Of a stretch of DNA of 64,000 bases, positions 8,016 to 34,664 are shown piece by piece. The notes below the pieces were generated by a model that saw only the letters and a program-made list of their open reading frames with translations, was not told where the DNA came from and did no database searches. Every line of letters begins with the position of its first letter. Positions within the stretch are counted from its first letter, which is position 1. The position numbers and the translations under genes were made by a program. Source of the DNA: an uncultured Bacteroidales bacterium (GTDB lineage Bacteria > Bacteroidota > Bacteroidia > Bacteroidales > Muribaculaceae); NCBI GenBank assembly GCA_947173955.1, contig CAMWHE010000004.1, forward strand, positions 6,513 to 70,512. Direction: 5' to 3'.

Positions 8016-8109
8016 GGAATGTCAAATAAATAGTTGAATGAATACACAAATTAGACGCAATAGAAGCCGATTTGTGTCAGTAGAGACAGCGTAATAACGT
8101 TTTTTAACG

Positions 8110-25228: not shown

Positions 25229-26022
25229 TTTCTATTCTTAAGCAGGTTGATATCGATCTTCTTCAGCGCTGAGCGCATCTGAATGTAGCCGTCAAGGAAT
25301 ACGGTATTGATTTTCTTTAGATTGAATACTTTGTAATGAGCCAGTTCGGACATCTCGACCTGAAGGTCACAGAGCTTTATATCCTCGGCCTGCTGTCCTT
25401 TTGACATCAGCACGTAAGTGCGCATAGCAATATCTATCAGCGAGTTGCCGGGACGTTCGGTTTTCATGGGACTGCAGTTGAGGCCGATGAGGAAGTCGCA
25501 TTTGTCGCGCAGGATCCATGAGGGTAGATTATGGAGGACACCACCGTCTACATATTTCACACCGTTCATTTCCACCGGATGAAATATTATCGGCATACTG
25601 CACGAAGCCTGCATTATGTCGCCGATCGGACCTTCGTGAAACTCGACAGCGCAACCGTTGTCGATATCGGTCACTCCGATATAGGTCGGGATCTTCAGAT
25701 CCTCAAGCCGCTCGATGCCGTTGAGTTGCTTAAGGACATGCTGCTTGAAACGGTTGATACGGAAGAGGTCGCCTCCGCGCACACTCAAGCGGGCAAAGTC
25801 GCCAAACTTCCCTTCGCTGAACACTCGGATCATATCGTCCGGCCGTACTCCGGCGGAATACATTACGGCCACGACCGATCCGGCACTCACTCCGGCGATG
25901 ACATCGGGCCTCAGTCCCGCCTCCTCAAGAGCCTTGAGTGCGCCGGCATGCGCGAAGCCACGGGCTCCGCCTCCCGACAGGGCCACTCCAATACGATAGG
26001 GTTTGTTGCTTTCAGTCGCCAT
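25225..26022 (-). CDS. Patatin-like phospholipase family protein
   Basis: Contains the GGGARG oxyanion motif and the GVSAGS nucleophile elbow, with a DGG near the C-terminus. Confidence 0.88.
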   Translation of the reverse strand: MATESNKPYRIGVALSGGGARGFAHAGALKALEEAGLRPDVIAGVSAGSVVAVMYSAGVRPDDMIRVFSEGKFGDFARLSVRGGDLFRINRFKQHVLKQLNGIERLEDLKIPTYIGVTDIDNGCAVEFHEGPIGDIMQASCSMPIIFHPVEMNGVKYVDGGVLHNLPSWILRDKCDFLIGLNCSPMKTERPGNSLIDIAMRTYVLMSKGQQAEDIKLCDLQVEMSELAHYKVFNLKKINTVFLDGYIQMRSALKKIDINLLKNRK

Positions 26023-26025
26023 ATC

Positions 26026-26676
26026 TCAACTTTTCTTCTGAGCCTCGATGGAGGCTCTTACGGCCTCATCTATCTCTCTCAGCACATCCGGATCCATCGT
26101 CTTAGCCACGACATCCCTGGCATATTCCACCCGGGAGCGTGCCGCATCCGTGCGCAGATACTTAGGATCAAGTCCAAGACTGCCGAGACGCCATCGGTCG
26201 AGCGCATCCGCATCCTTGAAAATGGCATACAGAAGCTTTGCCTTCCGGCCTTCGGGGCTGTCAATGCCCCAGCGTTTTTCGATAGCCTTCACTCCGACGC
26301 TATCATCAAGATCATGATAGCGCATCATGTAAGCGGCACGCTCGTCAAAGTCAATATCTGCGTTATCAGCACAATATTGCGAGTAGTAGACCGCACCGCG
26401 CGCACCATGCCCCGTGTCGAGATACTCGTCAAGCCGTCTTGTATCATGAAATATTGCGGCATGGGCGAGCGCTTCTATCGCACGGGGATTGTCGGGCATA
26501 AGCTCATATCCCATCGACAGGGCATGGAGAAGTACACGCTCACAGTGAGCCATCGCGTGGATCCTGCTGTCGGGCATATTGAAGCGCACACGCTCGTAGA
26601 GATACGGCGCCCAGTGCAGAAACAGCTTTCTGACCGCTTCCGGCTGTGAATTAAGGATGTCGGCAGTTATTACCAT
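26026..26676 (-). CDS. HD domain-containing protein
   Basis: H...HD pattern: HAMAHCERV and AAIFHDTRR. Confidence 0.6.
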   Translation of the reverse strand: MVITADILNSQPEAVRKLFLHWAPYLYERVRFNMPDSRIHAMAHCERVLLHALSMGYELMPDNPRAIEALAHAAIFHDTRRLDEYLDTGHGARGAVYYSQYCADNADIDFDERAAYMMRYHDLDDSVGVKAIEKRWGIDSPEGRKAKLLYAIFKDADALDRWRLGSLGLDPKYLRTDAARSRVEYARDVVAKTMDPDVLREIDEAVRASIEAQKKS

Positions 26677-26682
26677 TTGTGG

Positions 26683-26719
26683 GGAATATAAAGGCGCGCC
26701 GGAAATATCAGCGCGCCTT
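26683..26719 (-). terminator. Terminator of the porin-like gene
   Basis: 9-bp GC-rich stem AAGGCGCGC / GCGCGCCTT, followed on the minus strand by TTATATTC. Confidence 0.6.
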
Positions 26720-26745
26720 ATATTAAATCATTATTTCATTGAAAA

Positions 26746-27324
26746 TCAGAACAGATAAGCGGCAGTAATTGTCCAGCAGCGGTTCTTGCCCTTGAAGAGG
26801 TGCTGCTCACTTGAACTTGCGCTCTTCAGTCCGAAGCCATATGTGGCACCGATCTGCACATGATTGACGAACTGTATGCCGGCACCTACTGTCCATGCGA
26901 CGTCAAACTTACGGTTGCTTACGGCATCCTTCATAGTCTTCTTTGAAACGAGGAACGAGAAGTCGGGACCCGTAGTGAGGAACGGAGCGACAAACTTGCC
27001 GATGATAGGCAGACCGATTTTATACTTGAAGTTGATAGGTATATCGATATAGCTGCGGTTGAACTTCTCATTGTCAAGCTCGATTGAGCGGTTGGCGTAG
27101 AGAACAGATGCGTCGAAGCCTACATTAATAATAGGTACGGTAAATTCAGCCATAAGACCGCCGGTAAAGCCGGCACGGTTGTCTGAATTGAATGTCTCTG
27201 TGTTCAGTTTGAGCGAGTTGACAGCAACACCGGCTTTGACACCCCATTTAAACTGAGCCTGAGCAGGCATGACGGCAGCCGTAGCGATCACAACGGCAGC
27301 GAGGACTTTTGTGAAAAATTTCAT
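26746..27324 (-). CDS. Outer membrane beta-barrel (porin family / OmpA-N-like) protein
   Basis: The N-terminus MKFFTKVLAAVVIATAAVMPAQAQ is a signal peptide. The body shows an alternating beta-strand pattern and ends in ...ITAAYLF. The start is taken at the internal ATG at 27324. Confidence 0.8.
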   Translation of the reverse strand: MKFFTKVLAAVVIATAAVMPAQAQFKWGVKAGVAVNSLKLNTETFNSDNRAGFTGGLMAEFTVPIINVGFDASVLYANRSIELDNEKFNRSYIDIPINFKYKIGLPIIGKFVAPFLTTGPDFSFLVSKKTMKDAVSNRKFDVAWTVGAGIQFVNHVQIGATYGFGLKSASSSEQHLFKGKNRCWTITAAYLF

Positions 27325-27468
27325 AACTGTTGGGTTTGGTTTGTTTTTGCAAAAATAACATTTTTTCCAAATACTAAACAAATTTTTCTCATTTCCTGTT
27401 CGCCATTTATAGTCTTTTCTTTCTCAAAATAGATTATCTTTGCATTTGAAATCCCATATAGCATCCTA

Positions 27469-27789
27469 ATGACTACTGAAAAGCGACTTGAACTGGAAGA
27501 GAAAGTTATCGCGATACTCCGCACGGTCTACGATCCGGAGGTGCCGGTCGACATCTATTCTCTCGGACTGATATATAAAATCGATATCGACGATGACGCA
27601 AACCTTACTGTCGACATGACCATGACGGCGCCCAACTGCCCGATGGCCGACTTCATAGTAGACGACGCGCGCTATAAGCTCGAATCGATCGAAGGTCTTA
27701 AAAGTGTCACCATCAATATCGTCTTTGAGCCTGTATGGACTCAGGACATGATGAGCGAGGAAGCCAAACTTGAACTCGGATTTCTTTAA
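27469..27789 (+). CDS. DUF59 / SufT-like Fe-S cluster assembly protein
   Basis: Contains VYDPEVPVDIYSLGLIY...TMTAPNCPMA, the typical DUF59 motif with its conserved Cys. Confidence 0.8.
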   Translation: MTTEKRLELEEKVIAILRTVYDPEVPVDIYSLGLIYKIDIDDDANLTVDMTMTAPNCPMADFIVDDARYKLESIEGLKSVTINIVFEPVWTQDMMSEEAKLELGFL

Positions 27790-28576
27790 CCATCCCTACC
27801 CCGCCGTAGCCGTGCGCAAAGCAGTCTATTTCATATCCGACCTCCATCTTGGGGCGACTTATCTCGACGATCCGCTGCAATATGAGCGCCGGGTAGTCAG
27901 ATGGTTGCGGTCGATCGAGGAGGATGCGGCCGAGCTATATCTGCTCGGCGACATCCTCGACTACTGGTATGAATACCGCACGGTAGTGCCCCGCGGCTAC
28001 ACACGATTTCTCGGTCAGCTCGGCATGATGGCCGACGCGGGGGTCAAAATCACATGGATAATCGGCAATCACGACATATGGATCAACGACTATCTGCCTG
28101 AGGAACTCGGCATAACGGTAGTCGACGGCACGATAATCAAAGAGATCCTCGGCAAGCGCTTTTTCCTTGCCCACGGAGACGCCCTCGGCAAGCTGCCGCG
28201 AGGATTCCGGTTTATCAGATGGATGTTCCGCAACAAATTCCTTCAGCACCTCTACTCGGCCGTACATCCCCGATGGACGGTGCCGTTCGCTCACCGCTGG
28301 TCAGCCCATTCGCGCAACTTTTCTGAGGAAATTCCACAATTTGCCGGTCCGGACAAAGAGCCTTTCGTAGCATTCTCAGAAGAGTATCAGCGCGACCACC
28401 CTGATCAGGCGATAGACTTCTTCGTCTTGGGACACAGGCACATACTGCTCGACTATCCCCTCACACACGGTGGCCGACTGATAGTGCTCGGCGACTGGAT
28501 CCATCATTTTTCCTACGGAAAATGGGACAGCAAAAATTTCATTTTGCAATGCTTCGATGACAAATTGAATCCGTAA
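27770..28576 (+). CDS. lpxH: UDP-2,3-diacylglucosamine diphosphatase
   Basis: Metallophosphoesterase motifs FISDLHLG, GDILD, GNHD and GHRH are present. The listed TTG start at 27770 overlaps the previous gene. An in-frame GTG at 27812 (MRKAVYFISDLHLG) is an equally plausible start. Confidence 0.85.
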   Translation: MNSDFFNHPYPAVAVRKAVYFISDLHLGATYLDDPLQYERRVVRWLRSIEEDAAELYLLGDILDYWYEYRTVVPRGYTRFLGQLGMMADAGVKITWIIGNHDIWINDYLPEELGITVVDGTIIKEILGKRFFLAHGDALGKLPRGFRFIRWMFRNKFLQHLYSAVHPRWTVPFAHRWSAHSRNFSEEIPQFAGPDKEPFVAFSEEYQRDHPDQAIDFFVLGHRHILLDYPLTHGGRLIVLGDWIHHFSYGKWDSKNFILQCFDDKLNP

Positions 28577-28810
28577 CTACTGATATTAACAATATTTCAC
28601 ATTTATCACTATCGCCCCACGAAAATTTTCATAATATTGATATATAGCATTTTAACCCACATACATAGATTAAAAACAGGTTGAGTGATTAAAAACTATG
28701 TTAGAAAACATGTTTTTTTATTTGGCAGCGTAAGAAAAAAGGGCAACCTTTGCATCACAAACCTATAACAATCTTTTTTACCTTAGAAATTGTACCTATT
28801 GGAAACCTAT

Positions 28811-28841
28811 AAAAAGGGACTTCGTGATGAAGTCCCTTTTT
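28811..28841. terminator. Strong bidirectional terminator hairpin
   Basis: 12-bp stem AAAAAGGGACTT / AAGTCCCTTTTT with a 7-nt loop and A/T runs on both sides. Confidence 0.7.
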
Positions 28842-28937
28842 ATGTTATCAGCCGGAAGAAGCTTCCTCATGTTCATATTCTGATGTGTATTGCTCGCACA
28901 TGCTCTGCAAGTGCGATAGGGGTAAGAAAAATGCAAC

Positions 28938-29279
28938 GTGGGGGCTCACCTTTGGCTTAACCGCCACGCTACTATGCCGACACCTGCCCGGCAGGTGTCT
29001 CTACTTTGTCTCCTCGCCCCTGGCGGATGGAAATGCGGAATAGCTATAATCGGCGTCCCGAAGAGGGACGCCCTGAGAGAGCTGCGACAGGTACCGGGCA
29101 CATCTCGCTACGCTCGATGTACCGCGGCTACTGTAAATCGGCGCTCTCTTCGGAGCGCCACATGGCGACTGAAAGATATCAGTAACTGCAATCGGATTGC
29201 ACGATATCGCGTTGCCGACGCTCATTTTCGCCATACTTCCCTGCTCCCCAGACACTGACGTACGCCTGAGGTTGCCCAC
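28938..29279 (+). other. GC-rich, hairpin-dense non-coding block (possible structured RNA or recombination-site arm), family unknown
   Basis: It contrasts sharply in composition with its AT-rich surroundings. Stems: 28979-28999 (9 bp), 29052-29072 (8 bp), 29080-29086/29123-29129 (7 bp with one U.G), 29140-29159 (7 bp), and a nested 29164-29216 stem with one G.U. The wobble pairs only work on the + strand. The two ORFs across it do not look like proteins. Confidence 0.35.
28977..29040 (+). repeat. 64-bp direct repeat, copy A
   Basis: Matches 31139-31202 at 56 of 64 positions with no indels. It contains the hairpin GACACCTGC-CCG-GCAGGTGTC. Confidence 0.9.
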
Positions 29280-29397
29280 AATAACGCGCCTTTATGACGT
29301 TTGACCTCATATTATTTTCGCAACCATCATCTTTTTACATCGACCCACTTTTTGCTTGTTGGGACAAAAATCGTATCTTTACGAAAATATAATCAAT

Positions 29398-29742
29398 ATG
29401 GAATCTCAGTATATCGAAATAGACCCGAACGATAAAATTATATGCGTGAATATCAGCAGCTCTTTTGATAAAAAAGAACGTGCAGATAATTATGATCGGG
29501 CACGGCATTATTGGAAAGTTTCACCTAAAAGAGCTAATAATGCTAATCTTGTATTGGCTACCGCACATGGAATAGTAATAGCTGTATTCAAGCCGTTCAA
29601 ATGGTATCAGACAAACTCCATCAAATACCCGGGAAGATATGAATTTGATGGCGAAGAAGTAAAAGATTCACCATATTTAGGAAAATGTATATGGAATGTA
29701 GTCAACAAACATACAGTCTCCATTGCTTATATAAACTTGTAA
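29398..29742 (+). CDS. Hypothetical small protein (114 aa) in the low-GC cassette
   Basis: The ORF starts MESQYIEIDPNDK.... The start is the ATG at 29398, preceded by the ATCTTTACGAAAA motif. I recognise no family. Confidence 0.55.
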   Translation: MESQYIEIDPNDKIICVNISSSFDKKERADNYDRARHYWKVSPKRANNANLVLATAHGIVIAVFKPFKWYQTNSIKYPGRYEFDGEEVKDSPYLGKCIWNVVNKHTVSIAYINL

Positions 29743-29956
29743 CAAGGAAAATTTCACCGTACTAAACACGTACTGTTAAGACACCAAACATGATAATATG
29801 AGTATGGTCTACGATCTTTACGAAAACTCCAATATGCCCAAGTGTTTGCTGTTATAAAAAATAGTGGAATTGGGATATCTATATCACACGATCAAAAATT
29901 AGCATTAGGGGCGATCGGGAAAAAGCTCCAAGCTGTTTTGGGCAAAAAAGAATAGT

Positions 29957-31069
29957 ATGACAAAAATTCTCTCTCAAAATTACAGCTATGCCAATAATTC
30001 GAGCAATGAACTTATAAAAGTTTCTACTGCTCAGCGTAATGAAAAATATTTTTGTCCTGTATGCGGCGAACTTATGATCCCTCATATGGGAAAAATTCGA
30101 CGTTGGCATTTCGTTCATAAAAACACAGAAAACTGTTCATATGAATCATATCTCCATCTGTTAGCGAAATTCAAGATAAGAGAGACTTTTCTTAAATCCG
30201 AGCATTTTCTGCTTTCATATAAAGCAAAAGCACTTTGTTCTCATGAGTGCCCTTTTATCACTTCTCCCAAATGCGAAGATGAAAAACCTGTTCAATTCGA
30301 TTTGCGTAGATACTATGATAAATGCGAGATAGAAGCTTCCTATTATCAATACCGAGCTGACTTACTATTATCCTCTTCTACAAACTCTAATCGACCACCT
30401 GTGTTAATTGAAATTAGGGTTACACATAAATGTACTGAAGACAAAATTAATAGTGGTGCTCGTATTATTGAAATCCCAATTCAATCTGAAGAACAAATTG
30501 ATCATATTGTTGAAAGCGGCAAATTAAAAGCAGTAAGAGCTAATCAATTTAGCCATTTAGACGAAAATAAAATAACCTTATACAATTTCAATAAAATAGA
30601 ATCTTTTGATCCGATTGGATCATTCGATGAAGACGAAGAGTATTTTAGTCGAAAGAATACAATTGTATTTTGGCTGAATCAACAAGGCAAATTCTGCTCA
30701 TTTGATTGTCACTGTTACGAAGTTCGTGACAAACTACCACCAAATGTTCATTATTATATAACCCAAATTGCGACCCCATTCAAAGAGATTTTTCAAGAAT
30801 TCTCTAAGCGAGGAGTAAAAATTCGTAATTGTTTCTTATGCAAGTTTAGTAAACAAGACTATTGGGGCGACTGGATTTGCATTCTATATAAGAGACTTAG
30901 TTTACCACGTAAGCCTTCTCCATATAGCGCTACATCATGTTCCAATTACATGGAAAATTTTATGACTTCGCAAAATGCGGTATCAATTGCACACCCTCAA
31001 AATACGGAACAATCTGATTCTACTCCCCCCTGTAAGTTCTATTACCATATATGTGAGGATATACTATGA
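29957..31069 (+). CDS. CoiA-like zinc-ribbon / PD-(D/E)xK-type nuclease family protein with a Cys-rich C-terminal extension
   Basis: The N-terminus YFCPVCGELMIPHMGKIRRWHFVHKNTENCSYESYLHLLAK parallels the CoiA pattern CPxCG...HFAH....C...SE.H. YRADLLL...VLIEIRVTH parallels the D...E.Q.S core. The C-terminal half has several Cys clusters of unknown family. Confidence 0.6.
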   Translation: MTKILSQNYSYANNSSNELIKVSTAQRNEKYFCPVCGELMIPHMGKIRRWHFVHKNTENCSYESYLHLLAKFKIRETFLKSEHFLLSYKAKALCSHECPFITSPKCEDEKPVQFDLRRYYDKCEIEASYYQYRADLLLSSSTNSNRPPVLIEIRVTHKCTEDKINSGARIIEIPIQSEEQIDHIVESGKLKAVRANQFSHLDENKITLYNFNKIESFDPIGSFDEDEEYFSRKNTIVFWLNQQGKFCSFDCHCYEVRDKLPPNVHYYITQIATPFKEIFQEFSKRGVKIRNCFLCKFSKQDYWGDWICILYKRLSLPRKPSPYSATSCSNYMENFMTSQNAVSIAHPQNTEQSDSTPPCKFYYHICEDIL

Positions 31070-31138
31070 AGTATTGGTAAAATCATGTTATACTCTCATT
31101 ACCATACAACATCATTATAAGCCAACAAATCAAGGAAC

Positions 31139-31202
31139 CCGACACCTGCCGAGCAGGTGTCTCTCCTCTGTCTCCTCTCCCGTGGGGGATGGAAATGCGA
31201 AA
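31139..31202 (+). repeat. 64-bp direct repeat, copy B, abutting the msrAB stop codon
   Basis: See copy A. The offset is exactly 2162 bp. The hairpin stem is conserved and two of the differences fall in its loop (CCG versus CGA). Confidence 0.9.
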
Positions 31203-31203
31203 A

Positions 31204-32154
31204 TTAGTGGGAGGGGGTGACGAGGGGGATGAAGGAGGCGTAGCCGGCGGAGGCCATTTCTTCGAGGGGAATGAACCGGAGGGCTGCGGAGTTGATACAG
31301 TAGCGGAGGCCACCGGTCTCGACGGGGCCGTCGGGGAATACATGACCGAGATGGGAGTCGGCGCGGGCTGAGCGTACCTCGGTGCGATGGCGCCCATAGC
31401 TGTGATCGTCGTGCTCGGTCAGCAGAGACGTGTCGATCGGACGGCTGAATGCGGGCCATCCGCACCCGGAATCATATTTGTCGGATGAGACAAAGAGAGG
31501 GGTGCCGTCAACGATATCGACGTAGATGCCGGGACGGAATTCATGGTCATATTCGTTGATAAACGGTCGTTCGGTGGCACTGTTCTGTGTCACCTCCCAC
31601 TGAAGCGGGGTCAGACGTTGACGCAGCTGCTCGCGGCTTTCGGTTTTGGCAGACTTTTTCATCTCTCTGACCTCCTTGAAAAGAGCCGGATTGACATGGC
31701 AGTAGCCGTCGGGATTCTTTACGAGATAGTCCTGATGATAGTCCTCGGCAGGATAAAAGTTTTTCAAGGGGAGAAATTCGACAGCGAGCGGTTCGGTGTG
31801 GCGACGCTGCAGGGTAGCGAGCTCGGCCTCAATGACCGGGACATCGGTAGGGTCAGTATAGTAGATGCCTGTGCGATACTGCGTACCGGTATCATTGCCC
31901 TGACGGTTGAGTGACAGTGGATCGATGCTACGGAAATAGATGCGCAGGATTGTCGACAATCCGATTTCCTCAGGGTCATAATCGACTTTGACAGTCTCGG
32001 CCGCGTGGGTCAGCCCGGTGCAGACTTGCTGATATGTGGGCGAGGGAATCAGGCTGTTGGCATAGCCCGCAGTGGCTTTGTCGACTCCGGGAATCAGCGA
32101 CATCAGGTGAGCGGTACCCCAGAAGCATCCGCCGGCAAGGTATATCGTCTTCAT
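31204..32154 (-). CDS. msrAB: Bifunctional peptide-methionine (S)/(R)-S-oxide reductase MsrA-MsrB fusion
   Basis: The N-terminus carries GGCFWG (MsrA). The C-terminus carries CGWPAF and [11 protein letters not shown] (MsrB). Confidence 0.92.
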
Positions 32155-32157
32155 TTG

Positions 32158-33339
32158 TTAAATCTTTATGTAAATCTTACGTCGATAGAGGAAGTAGCCA
32201 GGAATCCAGTTGACAAACACGAACAGGATAGCCCACAGGCATGAAGCGAGCTGAGCGTCACCGCCTGTCAGCGGATTGAGAACTGTATAATAGAAAGCCC
32301 CTTTGAGCGAGGTGACTCCGCCGGGAGCAGCACCGCATCCGACGATGATATCCGACAAAAGATAGGCGAGGACTGCACTCTGAACGTAGAGGTAGAGCGG
32401 ATTGACGCCGAAAGCATGGAAGAACGGAGTCCAGCGCTTCCATCCCTTGACATCGATTATCCAAATAAGGAGGGCGAGGAGACTTGAGGCCATACCACAG
32501 GTAGTGAGTACGAATGTCGGCGACCATACCTTCTTGTTTAGGGGCAGACCATAGCAGAGAAGGAGTCCGCAGAAGGTCATGACGGCGCCGATAATGAAGA
32601 GCTTGTTGAGCATCTCGTCCCGGGAAGCGGCTTTACAGATGATACCACCGCAAAGGAAACCGATGAGCATATGAGCGATAGAGGGAAGAGTGCTGACGAG
32701 TCCTTCCGGATCGAATATAAACGGTTCGCCGAAAGCGCGGTCGGTGTACATATGGGCATCGCCGATGACGCTGCGGTCGATACGGGCAAGTATGTTGGTG
32801 TCACCATAGACAAATCCATCGCCGAATATCAGCAGCAGAGCATACCCGACAAGGAATGTCGCAATAAGCCACGGAAGGACACGATGCTTTACGGTCACGG
32901 CAAGGAGCGCTCCGATACCATAGCAGATACCCAGGCGGGGAAACACGCCGAGGATACGGATTCGGTCGAATGTCATTGTGGCCTCGGCAAGCGTCTTGCC
33001 ATCGACCAACAGGCCTTTGAGCCACATTGAAAACCATGCCAGACCGAGACCGATAAGCCATATAAGCAGGGCCCGGCGGATTATCTTCGTGACAACAGGA
33101 CGCGTGGGACGAAACTCGGTCTTGCGTAGCGACAGATAGGTCGACACACCCATGATAAACATGAAGAATGGAAAGACCAGATCGGTCGGCGTAAGGCCGT
33201 TCCATGCGGCATGACGCAGAGGCGTATAGGCCTTGGCCCATGTGCCCGCATTGTTGACAAGAATCATGCCGGCAATAGTCAAGCCGCGCATAATGTCGAG
33301 AGCCAACAGGCGCTGATTAGTTTTGGCGATAGATGTCAT
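32158..33339 (-). CDS. Heparan-alpha-glucosaminide N-acetyltransferase-like membrane acyltransferase (DUF1624/DUF5009)
   Basis: The N-terminus RLLALDIMRGLTIAGMILVNN is typical of this family, and the protein is polytopic. Confidence 0.7.
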   Translation of the reverse strand: MTSIAKTNQRLLALDIMRGLTIAGMILVNNAGTWAKAYTPLRHAAWNGLTPTDLVFPFFMFIMGVSTYLSLRKTEFRPTRPVVTKIIRRALLIWLIGLGLAWFSMWLKGLLVDGKTLAEATMTFDRIRILGVFPRLGICYGIGALLAVTVKHRVLPWLIATFLVGYALLLIFGDGFVYGDTNILARIDRSVIGDAHMYTDRAFGEPFIFDPEGLVSTLPSIAHMLIGFLCGGIICKAASRDEMLNKLFIIGAVMTFCGLLLCYGLPLNKKVWSPTFVLTTCGMASSLLALLIWIIDVKGWKRWTPFFHAFGVNPLYLYVQSAVLAYLLSDIIVGCGAAPGGVTSLKGAFYYTVLNPLTGGDAQLASCLWAILFVFVNWIPGYFLYRRKIYIKI

Positions 33340-34664
33340 TGATATAATAATGTAAGATTTGAACCGGGGAAATAGTGTGATAATATATCTTCATATGAAT
33401 AGCCCTGACTGCCCATTACAGCGGCTCCGATCTGGCAGAGCCCTACCCCATGGCCCCAGCCGGCGCCATGCAGAGTTATGACGGCATCTGAGTCGTCTCC
33501 GTCGATGGCAACTGTAAATGCAGAACTATACAGATGCGTGGGAGAAAGGGAGCGCCGTATCTCCAGCTCTTTTCCGATGATAAGGCTGTCTTCGCTTCCG
33601 ACGACCATCAGACGAGTAATACGGCCGGACTTACCACGCTGCAGGGGACGGAGATCCCTGATATAGCCGAGATGACGACCGGTACGTCGCTCAAAGAGCG
33701 CACCGAGAGAATCGGCACGATAGATCACTGTCCACCGATAAAAGTCAGTAGTAGCGCGGTCATAACTGTTAAGCACCGCGGCGAGCACGTCAGTAGATGG
33801 ATTGGCGCAGAAGGCATCAGGGCGACTTTCAATCCACTCCGCAGCTATTGTACTGTCTGTCAGATCGGGAACGGGAAGAGGCTCAGGCGAATCGCAGCAC
33901 GCTTCGAGATAGCTTTTATGAACAGGCTCCCAGCAATTCTCAAACTCTTCGGTGACACCACCGCAACATTTGGAAAAGCGTGCATCGCAGACTTCGCCCC
34001 CGGAAGTGAGCACAAGTCCGCGGGTAGACTTCACGGCATCGGCTACAGCCGGATTGGTACGGCGCGTCACTCCCTGATAACGCTGACAATGGTCGTCGGC
34101 ACAGACATCGAAAAGGTCATGGTCGTCGCGGTCATACCAGACTGTCACTTCGCCGGGAAGCTCCGCCCTAACCTCGGCCTTGCGGCCGCGACGCTCAAGC
34201 TGCGACAACAGCCATGAACGGGAAATAACGGCGTGAGCCTTCAGCAACGCCTCCGATGAGTTGGCACTCATTTCGCTTGAAATGACGCTCTCGAGATAGC
34301 GTTCTATGTCGATTTCATTTATGACGACCAACTGATCTCCTTTACGGAGAAGTTTTATATCGCCCTCGAAAGCCTGAGTCTCCTGCTGCTCCCAATGGAA
34401 ACCGACACCGATAGTGACGTCGACAATCTCTATCACACCGCCGGCAGGAGCAGACAACGTCATGCAGGAATCGACATCGCAGGTCGCAATACGTAATGTA
34501 TCTGACACTGAAGAGGCAGAATCATTAATGACAAGCGTGACTTCAGGGACTGTCATCAGTCCGACAGATATCATGGGAACAGTCCCGACCTGCCGACTCC
34601 CACCGCGACAGGACGACAGCAACAGGACAGATGCATAAAGGGATAAAGCTCTGAGTAATTTCAT
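33336..34664 (-). CDS. SpoIID/LytB domain-containing protein
   Basis: Has a lipoprotein-type signal (LLLSSC) and the motifs DHCQRYQG, SKCCGG and GHGVGLCQIGA. Confidence 0.8.
   Translation of the reverse strand: MKLLRALSLYASVLLLSSCRGGSRQVGTVPMISVGLMTVPEVTLVINDSASSVSDTLRIATCDVDSCMTLSAPAGGVIEIVDVTIGVGFHWEQQETQAFEGDIKLLRKGDQLVVINEIDIERYLESVISSEMSANSSEALLKAHAVISRSWLLSQLERRGRKAEVRAELPGEVTVWYDRDDHDLFDVCADDHCQRYQGVTRRTNPAVADAVKSTRGLVLTSGGEVCDARFSKCCGGVTEEFENCWEPVHKSYLEACCDSPEPLPVPDLTDSTIAAEWIESRPDAFCANPSTDVLAAVLNSYDRATTDFYRWTVIYRADSLGALFERRTGRHLGYIRDLRPLQRGKSGRITRLMVVGSEDSLIIGKELEIRRSLSPTHLYSSAFTVAIDGDDSDAVITLHGAGWGHGVGLCQIGAAVMGSQGYSYEDILSHYFPGSNLTLLYQ

Follow-up and report, generated by a model that had tools for sequence, protein, structure and literature searches.

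A recombinase-less, repeat-bracketed unit at the 3' end of msrAB in a Bacteroidales genome resembles the remnant of an integrated element

How did a short piece of AT-rich DNA with no recombinase of its own come to lie between two direct repeats at the 3' end of a host gene? The question is raised by the lpxH/msrAB junction in the 64-kb stretch of an uncultured gut Bacteroidales (Muribaculaceae) genome analysed here (the window). The first-pass annotation had described 64-bp imperfect direct repeats containing a hairpin with an intact stem, and our alignment agreed with this. Copy A (28977..29040, + strand) and copy B (31139..31202, + strand) are 56/64 identical (88%) without gaps at an offset of 2162 (BLAST E 4e-18), and both contain the hairpin GACACCTGC-loop-GCAGGTGTC, with two of the eight differences falling in its 3-nt loop. 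The eight mismatches are scattered across the whole 64 nt and single out no core, similarity is confined to these 64 nt with none beyond on either side, and the pair is the sole direct repeat of at least 35 nt above chance within the window. At 12% divergence the longest identical run is 13 nt, and since this is shorter than any assembler k-mer an assembly artefact is unlikely. The 26-nt hairpin part of the 64-mer occurs exactly twice in the window, with 0 occurrences expected from shuffles. A dispersed repeat was rejected, as the window holds the 64-mer just twice, and it was found neither in any fetched locus nor, with 0 matches, among IMG/VR viral contigs. Inverted repeats at the unit were limited to hairpin self-matches, and no tRNA or tmRNA target was found within the window.

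The att-like copy A of this host-like segment has its 9-bp hairpin at 28979-28999 (MFE -25.9 kcal/mol). Copy B (MFE -27.4 and -27.6 kcal/mol) is terminator-like on the - strand at 31154-31137, and judged from its sequence its hairpin is a candidate terminator for both ORF2 on the + strand and msrAB on the - strand. The host gene msrAB (31204..32154, - strand; Pfam PMSR and SelR) abuts the unit with its 3' end, and copy B, as had been annotated, ends at 31202, 1 nt before the msrAB stop codon at 31204-31206.

The unit can be written as 29041-31202 or, equivalently, as 28977-31138. It is AT-rich, with a GC content of about 35-37% as compared to a 54%-GC genome and to 0.48-0.55 outside the unit. 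Along the sequence, GC was 0.28-0.37 over ~29300-31100, 0.55-0.59 in 28900-29300 and ~0.54 in the genes on either side. On the msrAB side, the low-GC DNA ends where copy B starts; the left composition break lies at ~29290, 250 nt inside copy A and away from the edge of that copy. The deviant composition, together with ORF2 homologues spread over dozens of unrelated contexts, indicates that the unit is foreign, in agreement with the AT-rich insert proposed earlier. That proposal also spoke of a two-gene cassette, and the coding content between the repeats is indeed two + strand ORFs (29398-29742 and 29957-31069); what the term understates is a mosaic of a GC-rich, hairpin-dense non-coding block adjoining copy A inside the unit (29041..29290), ORF1, a truncated lipoprotein gene and ORF2. 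From the ORF2 stop codon to copy B runs an AT-rich tail of 69 nt (31070..31138), which is unique to the window locus, homology to other ORF2 loci ending at 31070-31073. The claimed absence of a recombinase was also correct for the unit, as neither ORF1 nor ORF2 contains a recombinase domain. There was no int, prm or mob gene, nor a recognisable remnant of one, in the unit, and no transposase, IntI, IS110, TnpB, RT-type or HUH gene at it. A heuristic tyrosine-recombinase motif scan, which is not conclusive, gave no hit in the window or in the ~5-kb flanks that it covered.

ORF1 (29398..29742, + strand; 114 aa) resembles the C-terminal, non-nuclease region of the defence protein PD-T4-3, matching the PADLOC PD-T4-3 profile at positions 130-208 of 256 (E 3e-12) and phrog_5356 at positions 133-207 of 255 (E 4e-12). 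It is not a PD-T4-3 member, since the first ~130 of the 256 profile positions are uncovered; the GIY-YIG nuclease domain presumably lies in this N-terminal part. A 48%-identical pseudogene adjoins an ORF2-like gene at locus L176. ORF1 is followed by a lipoprotein gene remnant (29815..29955, + strand), the last 46 codons and stop of a 155-aa gene that precedes ORF2 in intact modules. It is 70% identical to L152 3370-3837 (tblastn, E 4e-15), and DNA homology of the window to other ORF2 loci begins at 29838-29846. ORF2 (29957..31069, + strand; 370 aa) is intact and combines a CoiA_N zinc ribbon (Pfam, E 1e-11) and a CoiA-like PD-(D/E)xK-type core with Cys residues clustered at the C-terminus; plasmid genes of the 'CoiA family' match it over residues 19-169. 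The invariant residues of its family are C33, C36, H51, H54, E126, D135, E152, H157, K163, C292, C295 and C328, and CoiA_N is the only Pfam CoiA domain above threshold, in 33/33 members. The AlphaFold model of ORF2 is confident (pLDDT 83); searched against the PDB with Foldseek and PDB sequences it gave nothing significant, with weak hints of SfsA, RecU and Can2, and ORF2 had no significant match in PADLOC. The family is unnamed and comprises ~100 clusters, and ORF2 is absent from isolate phage genomes. We infer a role in defence for both ORF1 and ORF2.

The usual context of the ORF2 family is a four-gene module encoding a lipoprotein, the CoiA_N protein, a WG-repeat protein and AbiH, and in relatives with intact modules the AbiH gene closes the module (Pfam E 1e-42). 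In the window, ORF2 is intact and the last 46 lipoprotein codons are left, while the WG-repeat and AbiH genes are absent; because the module is reduced in this way, we regard the unit as decayed. The module is found at many different loci in relatives. One module, at 92-96% identity, is common to 7 genomes; it carries a DUF2795 3' fragment and in every case stops exactly at the stop codon of this fragment, after which the local DNA differs, and this constant end points to a defined crossover point. At L143, at the DUF2795 site, the module stands directly after DUF5906 (primase-like) and Mob_Pre genes, which is where an NBU-type element has its cargo. Distant ORF2 homologues were found near the ends of prophage-like viral contigs, and related viral contigs share an AbiH+CoiA_N cassette at 98.7-99.5% identity between flanks that are different or 85-95% identical. 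In the same viral contigs the upstream repeat appears gene-converted. The module, unnamed and widespread in gut Bacteroidales and their phages, travels between genomes as a sharply bounded unit at 92-99% identity; it is a good candidate for an anti-phage system not yet characterised.

The att-like duplication suggested by the first-pass annotation was supported by other members of the family. Same-strand flanking repeats were found at 19/124 ORF2-family loci, with only hairpin self-matches in the opposite-strand control; at 8/81 loci as compared to 0/56 shifted-interval controls; and, for repeats of at least 35 nt at E<1e-6, at 13/121 loci. The bracketed architecture occurs at at least 8 independent sites among ~50 contexts, always as low-GC units in higher-GC hosts, with imperfect flanking repeats of 49-146 nt (18-146 nt over all sites) and typically 83-89% identity. 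These repeats are local target sequence, either a tRNA-Ser 3' end, gene 3' ends with terminators or a promoter. At L089 the repeat is the tRNA-Ser(GCU) 3' end and its terminator, at L144, L145, L146 and L162 it is the last 22 nt of a DUF2795 gene and the terminator, at L152 it begins 2 nt past the dcm stop codon and in the phage case L127 it is a duplicated promoter and ATG. The bracketed unit holds ORF2 alone at L089, L154 and L166. At L146, four repeat copies delimit three defence-type cassettes (PDC-S01, the CoiA_N/WG/AbiH module and PDC-S01), two of which, the PDC-S01 cassettes, lack ORF2 and have the same repeat borders. Because the same family is bracketed alike at at least 8 other sites, the window repeats behave as att-type target duplications. 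No integrase lay between the repeats in any of the at least 8 bracketed units, the units had no conserved inner termini, and the targets had neither a sequence nor a hairpin position in common. Among 78 flanking proteins scanned with Pfam, the best 25 of 115 matched families included no integrase, which does not exclude one.

On the host side, an intact ancestral lpxH/msrAB junction had been proposed, and this was seen in no relative. The strong bidirectional terminator annotated there is present (28809-28843, with inverted 15-bp arms that are 100% complementary) and forms the 3' end of a BTnc060-like sRNA (28637..28843, + strand), whose Rfam RF04184 match of 57 bits (E 4e-7) falls short of the gathering score. 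The sRNA is host DNA conserved 3' of lpxH in relatives; its identity is 68-77% in L221-L223, and the contigs of all three break off within it. Between terminator and copy A lies a host-like spacer (28844..28976; GC 0.49-0.58) with small hairpins, for example at 28894-28916; the sequence left of copy B does not resemble it. The check for an empty site found none: the homology of relatives ends at msrAB, and the lpxH contigs of five relatives all end 220-250 nt past lpxH, in the sRNA terminator. MsrAB relatives at 86-90% identity (78% nucleotide) have the upstream genes in common, their homology stops at the msrAB 3' end (31218) and other DNA follows. One MsrAB relative (L103) has prs after msrAB, which indicates that the prs..lpxH block is inverted between lineages, and L101/L102 have other cargo and an IS1595 element at the msrAB junction. 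GTDB MsrAB relatives (at most 74% identity) are not syntenic, and neither the exact MsrAB nor the exact ORF2 protein was found outside the source contig.

The explanation that we place first, with about even confidence, is that the unit is a decayed, recombinase-less remnant of an integrated mobile element with defence-type cargo, a CIME-like islet whose repeats would be att sites. A circular element, probably NBU-like integrative mobilizable or prophage-type, would have borne the lipoprotein/CoiA_N/WG/AbiH module at its attR-proximal end. Immediately downstream of msrAB, a site-specific recombinase, either supplied in trans or lost since then, would have integrated this circle by a single crossover. 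As the element brought its own diverged copy of the 64-nt segment, two imperfect direct repeats would have resulted, attL and attR, both retaining the hairpin that terminates msrAB and ORF2. Internal deletions or replacements would then have removed the recombinase, mobilization, WG-repeat and AbiH genes and most of the lipoprotein gene, and ORF1 would be a later addition. Today the unit would be unable to move by itself and at most be excised or co-mobilised by a same-site element.

This explanation is favoured by a repeat that is real, unique, sharp-edged and coincident with the composition break on the msrAB side, and by repeat targets of the classical integrase type (the 3' ends of tRNAs and genes). 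Stretches of identity that never exceed 13 nt are too short for efficient homologous recombination and sufficient for a site-specific core. Against it stand the integrase-free bracketed units, the lack of an empty site in the uninformative relatives, the absence of any integrase-bearing element with the 64-mer among the viral contigs, the scattered mismatches, which single out no core, and the GC-rich block, which falls outside its account. Two suggestions made earlier, mobilisation in trans and a recombination-exchanged defence islet, both fit. Most likely, the unit is a known sort of element and not a new way of moving; the feature in the window is on its own ordinary, a repeat-flanked, recombinase-less remnant of horizontally acquired DNA.

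CIMEs have been defined, and their tandem accretion described, in the ICESt1/ICESt3 family of Streptococcus thermophilus (PMC5704250). Like them, the window unit is a cargo-only islet with attL/attR-like repeats that include the target end, and without integration or transfer genes; the putative attL and attR are kept, int and mob are lost and the partner gene is truncated. At the related locus L146 tandem arrays are separated by repeat copies, and the four-repeat, three-cassette array there suggests the tandem accretion described for CIMEs. The unit differs from CIMEs in its Bacteroidales host, in an intergenic target 1 nt after a stop codon, in repeats that are 12% diverged and in that no cognate integrase-bearing element is known for the 64-mer. 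Seen as an att island, it has repeats flanking DNA of deviant composition and no element-encoded integrase. The NBU-type mobilizable transposons of Bacteroides have the order int-prm-mob-cargo and integrate at tRNA 3' ends, NBU2 at tRNA-Ser. The likeness to these elements is one of gene context, with the module after DUF5906 and Mob_Pre at L143 and the single-gene unit at the tRNA-Ser(GCU) 3' end at L089; int, prm and mob are all missing from the window unit.

Several other classes of element were rejected. A transposon, IS or MITE was ruled out by the lack of terminal inverted repeats, conserved ends and a transposase and by duplications of 18-146 nt, and IS200/IS605-like ends, with the same hairpin in direct orientation at both ends, were rejected as the sister repeats are host sequence and there is no HUH gene. 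Integrons and the integrase-less attC clusters known as CALINs likewise have promoter-poor defence cassettes with imperfect hairpin repeats, and in the L146 array, too, there is no adjoining integrase. In contrast to attC, the repeats here copy the target gene's end and have no R''/L''-L'/R' organisation; the repeat is one simple 9-bp hairpin without GTTRRRY, IntI is missing, and an integron cassette or CALIN was therefore ruled out.

An alternative that we consider unlikely, but that survives better than the others, needs no recombinase at all: general recombination, by host or phage, would have acted on short duplicated regulatory segments, and mini-circles would have re-inserted by Campbell-type crossover. 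PeSL, regulatory cassettes of T4-type phages (PMC2839356, PMC4122927), form such mini-circles without a dedicated recombinase (PMC2839356). Both systems have ORF cassettes between duplicated promoter or terminator motifs, module-wise exchange in close genomes and no recombinase in the unit; they differ in that PeSL is one conserved motif with many copies per genome, for which circles are known, and the repeat here is local to its site and present twice. The spread of repeat lengths and the duplicated phage promoter at L127 fit recombinase-free recombination too, and so do the missing inner termini and integrases, repeats that are regulatory elements (terminator hairpins, or promoter and ATG) and viral cassettes that are nearly identical between divergent flanks, with a repeat that looks gene-converted. 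However, window repeats with no more than 13 consecutive identical bases, and an identity of 83-89% elsewhere, make a poor RecA-type substrate, and the tRNA and gene 3' ends typical of integrase targets, the sharply bounded DUF2795 fragment and the NBU-like mob/primase linkage at L143 also argue against recombinase-free shuffling.

Somewhat less probable again is that the duplicated 64-mer is not an insertion border, and that the low-GC DNA at ~29291-31138 came separately, for example when the intergenic region was replaced by homologous exchange in the flanking genes, or by illegitimate insertion. A second, terminator-bearing copy would have arisen or been kept since msrAB and ORF2 both need a terminator. 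The left composition break inside copy A and the host-like composition of the GC-rich block are in line with this, and the junction is a rearrangement endpoint in the genus, as seen from the prs..lpxH inversion relative to L103 and from the cargo and IS1595 of L101/L102. Separate arrival does not agree with the sharp repeat edges, with a low-GC right edge that coincides with the start of copy B, or with the same bracketing at at least 8 unrelated targets as compared to none of the 56 control intervals.

We give a low probability, slightly lower still, to an integron-like stockpiling of defence cassettes in gut Bacteroidales that needs a recombinase neither within the cassette nor next to the array. 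Cassettes would be captured at particular gene 3' ends (DUF2795, tRNA-Ser, msrAB), each event duplicating 20-150 nt of the target and giving arrays separated by target copies, as at L146. A trans-acting enzyme or recombination between short regulatory repeats would do this, perhaps with the aid of structured elements like the 29041-29290 block, and the window unit would then be a captured cassette and not a decayed larger element. Bacteroidales defence cassettes do accumulate at specific gene 3' ends with target copies between them, and a trans-acting capture mechanism, if true, would help to explain how Bacteroidales immunity diversifies without classical integrons.

The first-pass annotation had also considered homing by the CoiA-like nuclease, in which ORF2 would cut the target, be copied in a homing-like way and leave the duplication as a by-product of repair; we find this very unlikely. 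ORF2 is the constant gene of all units, stands alone in three of the bracketed ones and has a conserved core predicted to be of nuclease type, and genuine CoiA, which is restricted to Bacillota, is a structure-specific D-loop resolvase in recombination (bioRxiv 10.1101/2024.02.06.579203). On the other hand, the PDC-S01 cassettes at L146 share their repeat borders without ORF2, ORF2 is normally embedded in the four-gene AbiH module, and a part in phage defence has been demonstrated for a CoiA-domain protein (Vassallo et al. 2022, PMC9519451). Homing yields no duplications of 64-146 nt, the targets are unrelated and the element termini are not conserved, and a free-standing homing endonuclease gene was rejected on these grounds. 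ORF2 shares the N-terminal CoiA_N zinc ribbon, the PD-(D/E)xK-type core and conserved acidic residues with CoiA of Bacillota and with the Vassallo et al. protein; it differs in a distinct, Cys-rich C-terminal half and in its AbiH-linked occurrence in Bacteroidales and their phages. Identity with the CoiA competence protein was rejected, as only CoiA_N passes in Pfam and the context is the AbiH module. The likeness of the unit to AbiH and PD-T4-3 defence lies in the AbiH gene of the intact relatives and in the ORF1 match, and the unit itself differs by the missing AbiH gene and by the missing N-terminal part of PD-T4-3.

That the GC-rich block functions as RNA or DNA (for instance as a regulatory RNA, a guide or bridge-type RNA, or an oriT) and aids movement of the unit is barely credible: it folds better than shuffled sequence (z-score -3.6 for the minus strand, -2.8 for the plus strand) and lies beside copy A inside the repeat-bounded unit, but this is evidence from a single sequence with no covariation in it, the block was not found beside any other ORF2-family member, Rfam gave it no match, and no IS110, TnpB or RT-type gene accompanies it. 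It has no 8-nt identity or complementarity to repeats or junctions, and a guide or bridge RNA was rejected for lack of a common 8-mer. In no frame did the block show a Pfam or protein-family signal, and it has no similarity to neighbouring sequence, to any fetched locus or to plasmids. Over 26000-34000, Rfam 15 gave no match at E<=1 except BTnc060 and one chance match. The block is host-like in composition, with an origin outside the account of a decayed integrated element, and folded together with its flanks it reached a z-score of -5.2 on the minus strand.

Copies A (28977-29040) and B (31139-31202) of the 64-nt repeated segment align without gaps at an offset of 2162 nt, with 56 of 64 positions identical (BLAST E 4e-18). 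The 9-bp stem GACACCTGC/GCAGGTGTC is intact in both copies, two of the eight differences fall in its loop, and copy B ends 1 base short of the msrAB stop codon (31204-31206). GC content between the copies is 0.28-0.37 across ~29300-31100, as compared to ~0.54 in the flanking genes, and domain searches found no recombinase domain in the unit. All of these features had been claimed in the first-pass annotation and were borne out. The similarity between the copies breaks off sharply at either end; the first 26 nt of the segment, hairpin included, occur exactly twice in the window vs. 0 times in 100 shuffles, and a repeat scan of the 64 kb found no second repeat of comparable length. At no point are more than 13 nt in a row identical between the copies, which makes a misjoin of the assembly across the repeat implausible.

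The unit has a mosaic make-up and is more than a simple two-gene cassette: both plus-strand genes described at first, ORF1 and ORF2, are present, together with a GC-rich block, a truncated lipoprotein gene and a 69-nt tail. The leftmost part is the GC-rich, hairpin-dense block of 250 nt (29041-29290; GC is 0.55-0.59 in 28900-29300), which is more stably folded than shuffles (z -3.6 on the minus strand, -2.8 on the plus strand). The block gave no Rfam match and no protein-family signal in any frame, and similarity to neighbouring DNA, to ~225 fetched loci or to plasmids was not found. ORF1 (29398-29742, 114 aa) follows; it matches phrog_5356 and the PD-T4-3 defence protein, the latter in its C-terminal region only (E 3e-12). 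Next to it lie the last 46 codons of the lipoprotein gene (29815-29955, 70% identical, E 4e-15), which in relatives is complete and immediately upstream of ORF2, then the intact ORF2 (29957-31069, 370 aa) with its CoiA_N zinc ribbon, and the tail (31070-31138). DNA homology to other loci of the ORF2 family is restricted to 29838-31073.

At the cluster level ORF2 has ~100 relatives, which are 26-75% identical and without exception unnamed or annotated as 'hypothetical' or 'CoiA family', and we compared 136 loci fetched from assemblies, metagenomes and viral contigs (~50 flank contexts). Family comparison showed a conserved core (E126/D135/E152/H157/K163) and a C-terminal CxxC...C cluster; the AlphaFold model is confident (pLDDT 83), and neither model nor sequence had a significant match in the PDB. 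The usual module order is lipoprotein (155 aa), CoiA_N protein (372), WG-repeat protein (254) and AbiH (304; Pfam E 1e-42, PADLOC E 4e-21). A distant two-gene form, AbiH+CoiA_N, is found in Bacteroides-phage-like contigs, and prophage-like contigs carry distant ORF2 homologues close to their ends. Phage-defence activity of a CoiA-domain protein has been shown by experiment (PMC9519451). By association with AbiH, PD-T4-3 and this protein, ORF1 and ORF2 would most likely serve in defence. The CoiA_N/AbiH module is uncharacterised and, with the cassette arrays at gene 3' ends described below and the structured block, forms the main source of interest. In a plasmid collection, genes labelled hypothetical or 'CoiA family' on 787 plasmids resemble the N-terminal region of ORF2 (residues 19-169). 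Most of these are conjugative plasmids from Enterobacter, Salmonella, Escherichia and Klebsiella, so CoiA-like nucleases are frequently carried by plasmids outside Bacillota.

No relative showed the intact ancestral lpxH/msrAB junction proposed in the first-pass annotation. The exact MsrAB and ORF2 proteins did not occur beyond the source contig, JAIDLL010000025 of the Muribaculaceae MAG GCA_029051115.1, and synteny was lacking in GTDB representatives, whose MsrAB is ≤74% identical. Three closer loci, L101 and L102 (MsrAB 90% identical) and L103 (86%), have SpoIID-HGSNAT-msrAB in common with the window at 78% nucleotide identity. Their homology stops ~12 nt ahead of the msrAB stop codon, and the 64-nt segment was not found in any of them. 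Other low-GC genes lie downstream of msrAB in L101 and L102, the latter also with an IS1595 element; in L103 (7650-8318) msrAB is convergent with prs, not with lpxH. In the window prs is the gene of the prs..lpxH block that lies farthest from msrAB, which implies that this block is inverted between lineages. It spans ~7 kb (prs-amylase-patatin-OMP-FeS-lpxH, window ~22-28.6 kb), with one endpoint at the msrAB junction. The lpxH contigs of relatives (L221-L225) all end, five of five, inside the terminator of a BTnc060-like sRNA, which suggests that either the sRNA is multi-copy or the junction hypervariable. In the window this sRNA lies downstream of lpxH (28637-28843) and scores below the Rfam gathering threshold. 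Since relatives carry differing DNA at msrAB and contigs break there, we regard the junction as a plastic spot; no empty site was found among these relatives. The MsrAB C-terminus (31204-31218) reads ...IPLVTPSH in the window vs. ...IPLVN or ...IPLVKP in the closest relatives, so the last four codons fall outside the homology.

A same-strand comparison of the DNA on either side of every family gene found flanking direct repeats at 19 of 124 loci; a control on the opposite strand gave hairpin self-matches only. With equal flank lengths, repeats occurred in 8/81 loci vs. 0/56 intervals shifted by 3.6 kb, and a wider scan found repeats ≥35 nt at E<1e-6 in 13 of 121 loci. Independent cases were listed for repeats ≥49 nt. 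In the window (64 nt, 88%) the repeated segment begins 1 nt past the msrAB stop, in L152 (78 nt, 83%) 2 nt past the dcm stop, and in L154 (136 nt, 85%) it is intergenic. L089 (70 nt, 89%) duplicates the 3' end and terminator of tRNA-Ser(GCU), with ORF2 as sole gene of the unit. L144 (112 nt, 87%) and L145/L146 (109-146 nt) repeat the final 22 nt of a DUF2795 gene together with the terminator; L162 (105 nt, 81%), with no DUF2795 gene in the locus, repeats DNA downstream of a DUF2795 3' fragment, and its flank is similar to the DNA that follows DUF2795 in L148, itself with a 21-nt repeat. In the phage-like L127-L132 (49-74 nt, 84-93%) the repeat is the promoter and ATG of the next gene. Two distant family members, with units of 30-34% GC in hosts of 50-60% GC, have shorter borders: a perfect 18-nt repeat abutting start and stop codons (L166, 4983-6116) and a 24-nt duplication of codons 1-7 of the host gene that lies downstream (L177, 1690-3606). 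Interiors are low in GC (0.30-0.39) relative to flanks in every bracketed case, and the inner ends have nothing in common between sites. The L089 insertion is identical in at least 11 public samples; 1.5-kb contigs that might have been circles were rejected, as they break in the repeat's identical 30 nt, an assembly effect.

The unit is an object of known type, a recombinase-less repeat-flanked islet, here in a new case. We give about even credence to its being what remains of an integrated element, flanked by att sites and devoid of a recombinase. On this reading, the element would have brought along a diverged 64-nt target copy of its own, inserted by a single crossover and then decayed. Signs of decay are the truncation of the lipoprotein gene, the missing WG-repeat and AbiH genes, the gain of ORF1 and the 12% divergence of the repeats; identical runs of ≤13 nt fit a site-specific core more readily than exchange of RecA type. 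Neither a circle nor a cognate integrase was found for the unit; heuristic motif scans for integrases were negative in the window and in loci spanning 5-6 kb of flank, and a Pfam scan of 78 flanking proteins showed no integrase among the top 25 of 115 matched families. A module with 92-96% identity is common to seven genomes, exactly from L146 4987 to 8018-8022, and ends at the stop codon of the carried DUF2795 fragment, with differing local DNA thereafter, which points to crossover at a defined position, the 3' end of the gene. In L143 this module is preceded by DUF5906 (primase-like) and Mob_Pre genes, which in the gene order of NBU-type mobilizable elements is where cargo sits. NBU2 targets tRNA-Ser.

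The main rival, recombinase-free shuffling via duplicated regulatory segments, is in our view unlikely; in its favour, repeat length varies between sites, the phage repeat is of promoter type and an integrase is consistently absent from bracketed units. Such shuffling has been demonstrated for PeSL cassettes of T4-type phages and their mini-circles (PMC2839356). An analogous arrangement is seen in L127-L135 (IMG/VR; e.g. L127 4999-7239), where the AbiH+CoiA_N cassette sits inside a duplicated promoter and ATG. Among related viral contigs this cassette is 98.7-99.5% identical and flanks differ or are 85-95% identical, which shows recent module exchange. Somewhat less probable still is that the duplication is not the insertion border; the left composition break does sit 250 nt inward of copy A.

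Self-homing by ORF2 is improbable. L146 (3029-9775, ERZ779799 NODE-343) holds four copies of a ~100-120-nt repeat at the DUF2795 end, with three defence-type cassettes between them: a PDC-S01 ATPase (E 3e-113), a CoiA_N/WG/AbiH module and a second PDC-S01 ATPase. Because the cassettes without ORF2 have the same borders, ORF2 is not needed for these in cis. The first-pass interpretation was thus partly right: a foreign, repeat-bordered, recombinase-less unit stands, and its movement would be in trans or by exchange and probably not by homing. The L146 repeat, the gene's last 22 nt plus two hairpins, has relatives in L145, L144, L148 and L162; no integrase was found in the 11-kb locus, and the arrangement is array-like, as in an integron, at a gene 3' end in Bacteroidales. 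That the structured block takes part in movement is very improbable, since it has no Rfam match and no 8-mer in common with repeats or junctions.

Directly downstream of the ORF2 cassette in L088 (7570-8420) we observed an array of at least six GC-rich (64-70%) units, each 'GGTATACCCC...GGCTC' followed by a short palindrome, with stems that change compensatingly (CCGCCACTGGCGG, CACGCACTGCGTG, CCGGCACTGCCGG); this looks like a REP-like repeat family.
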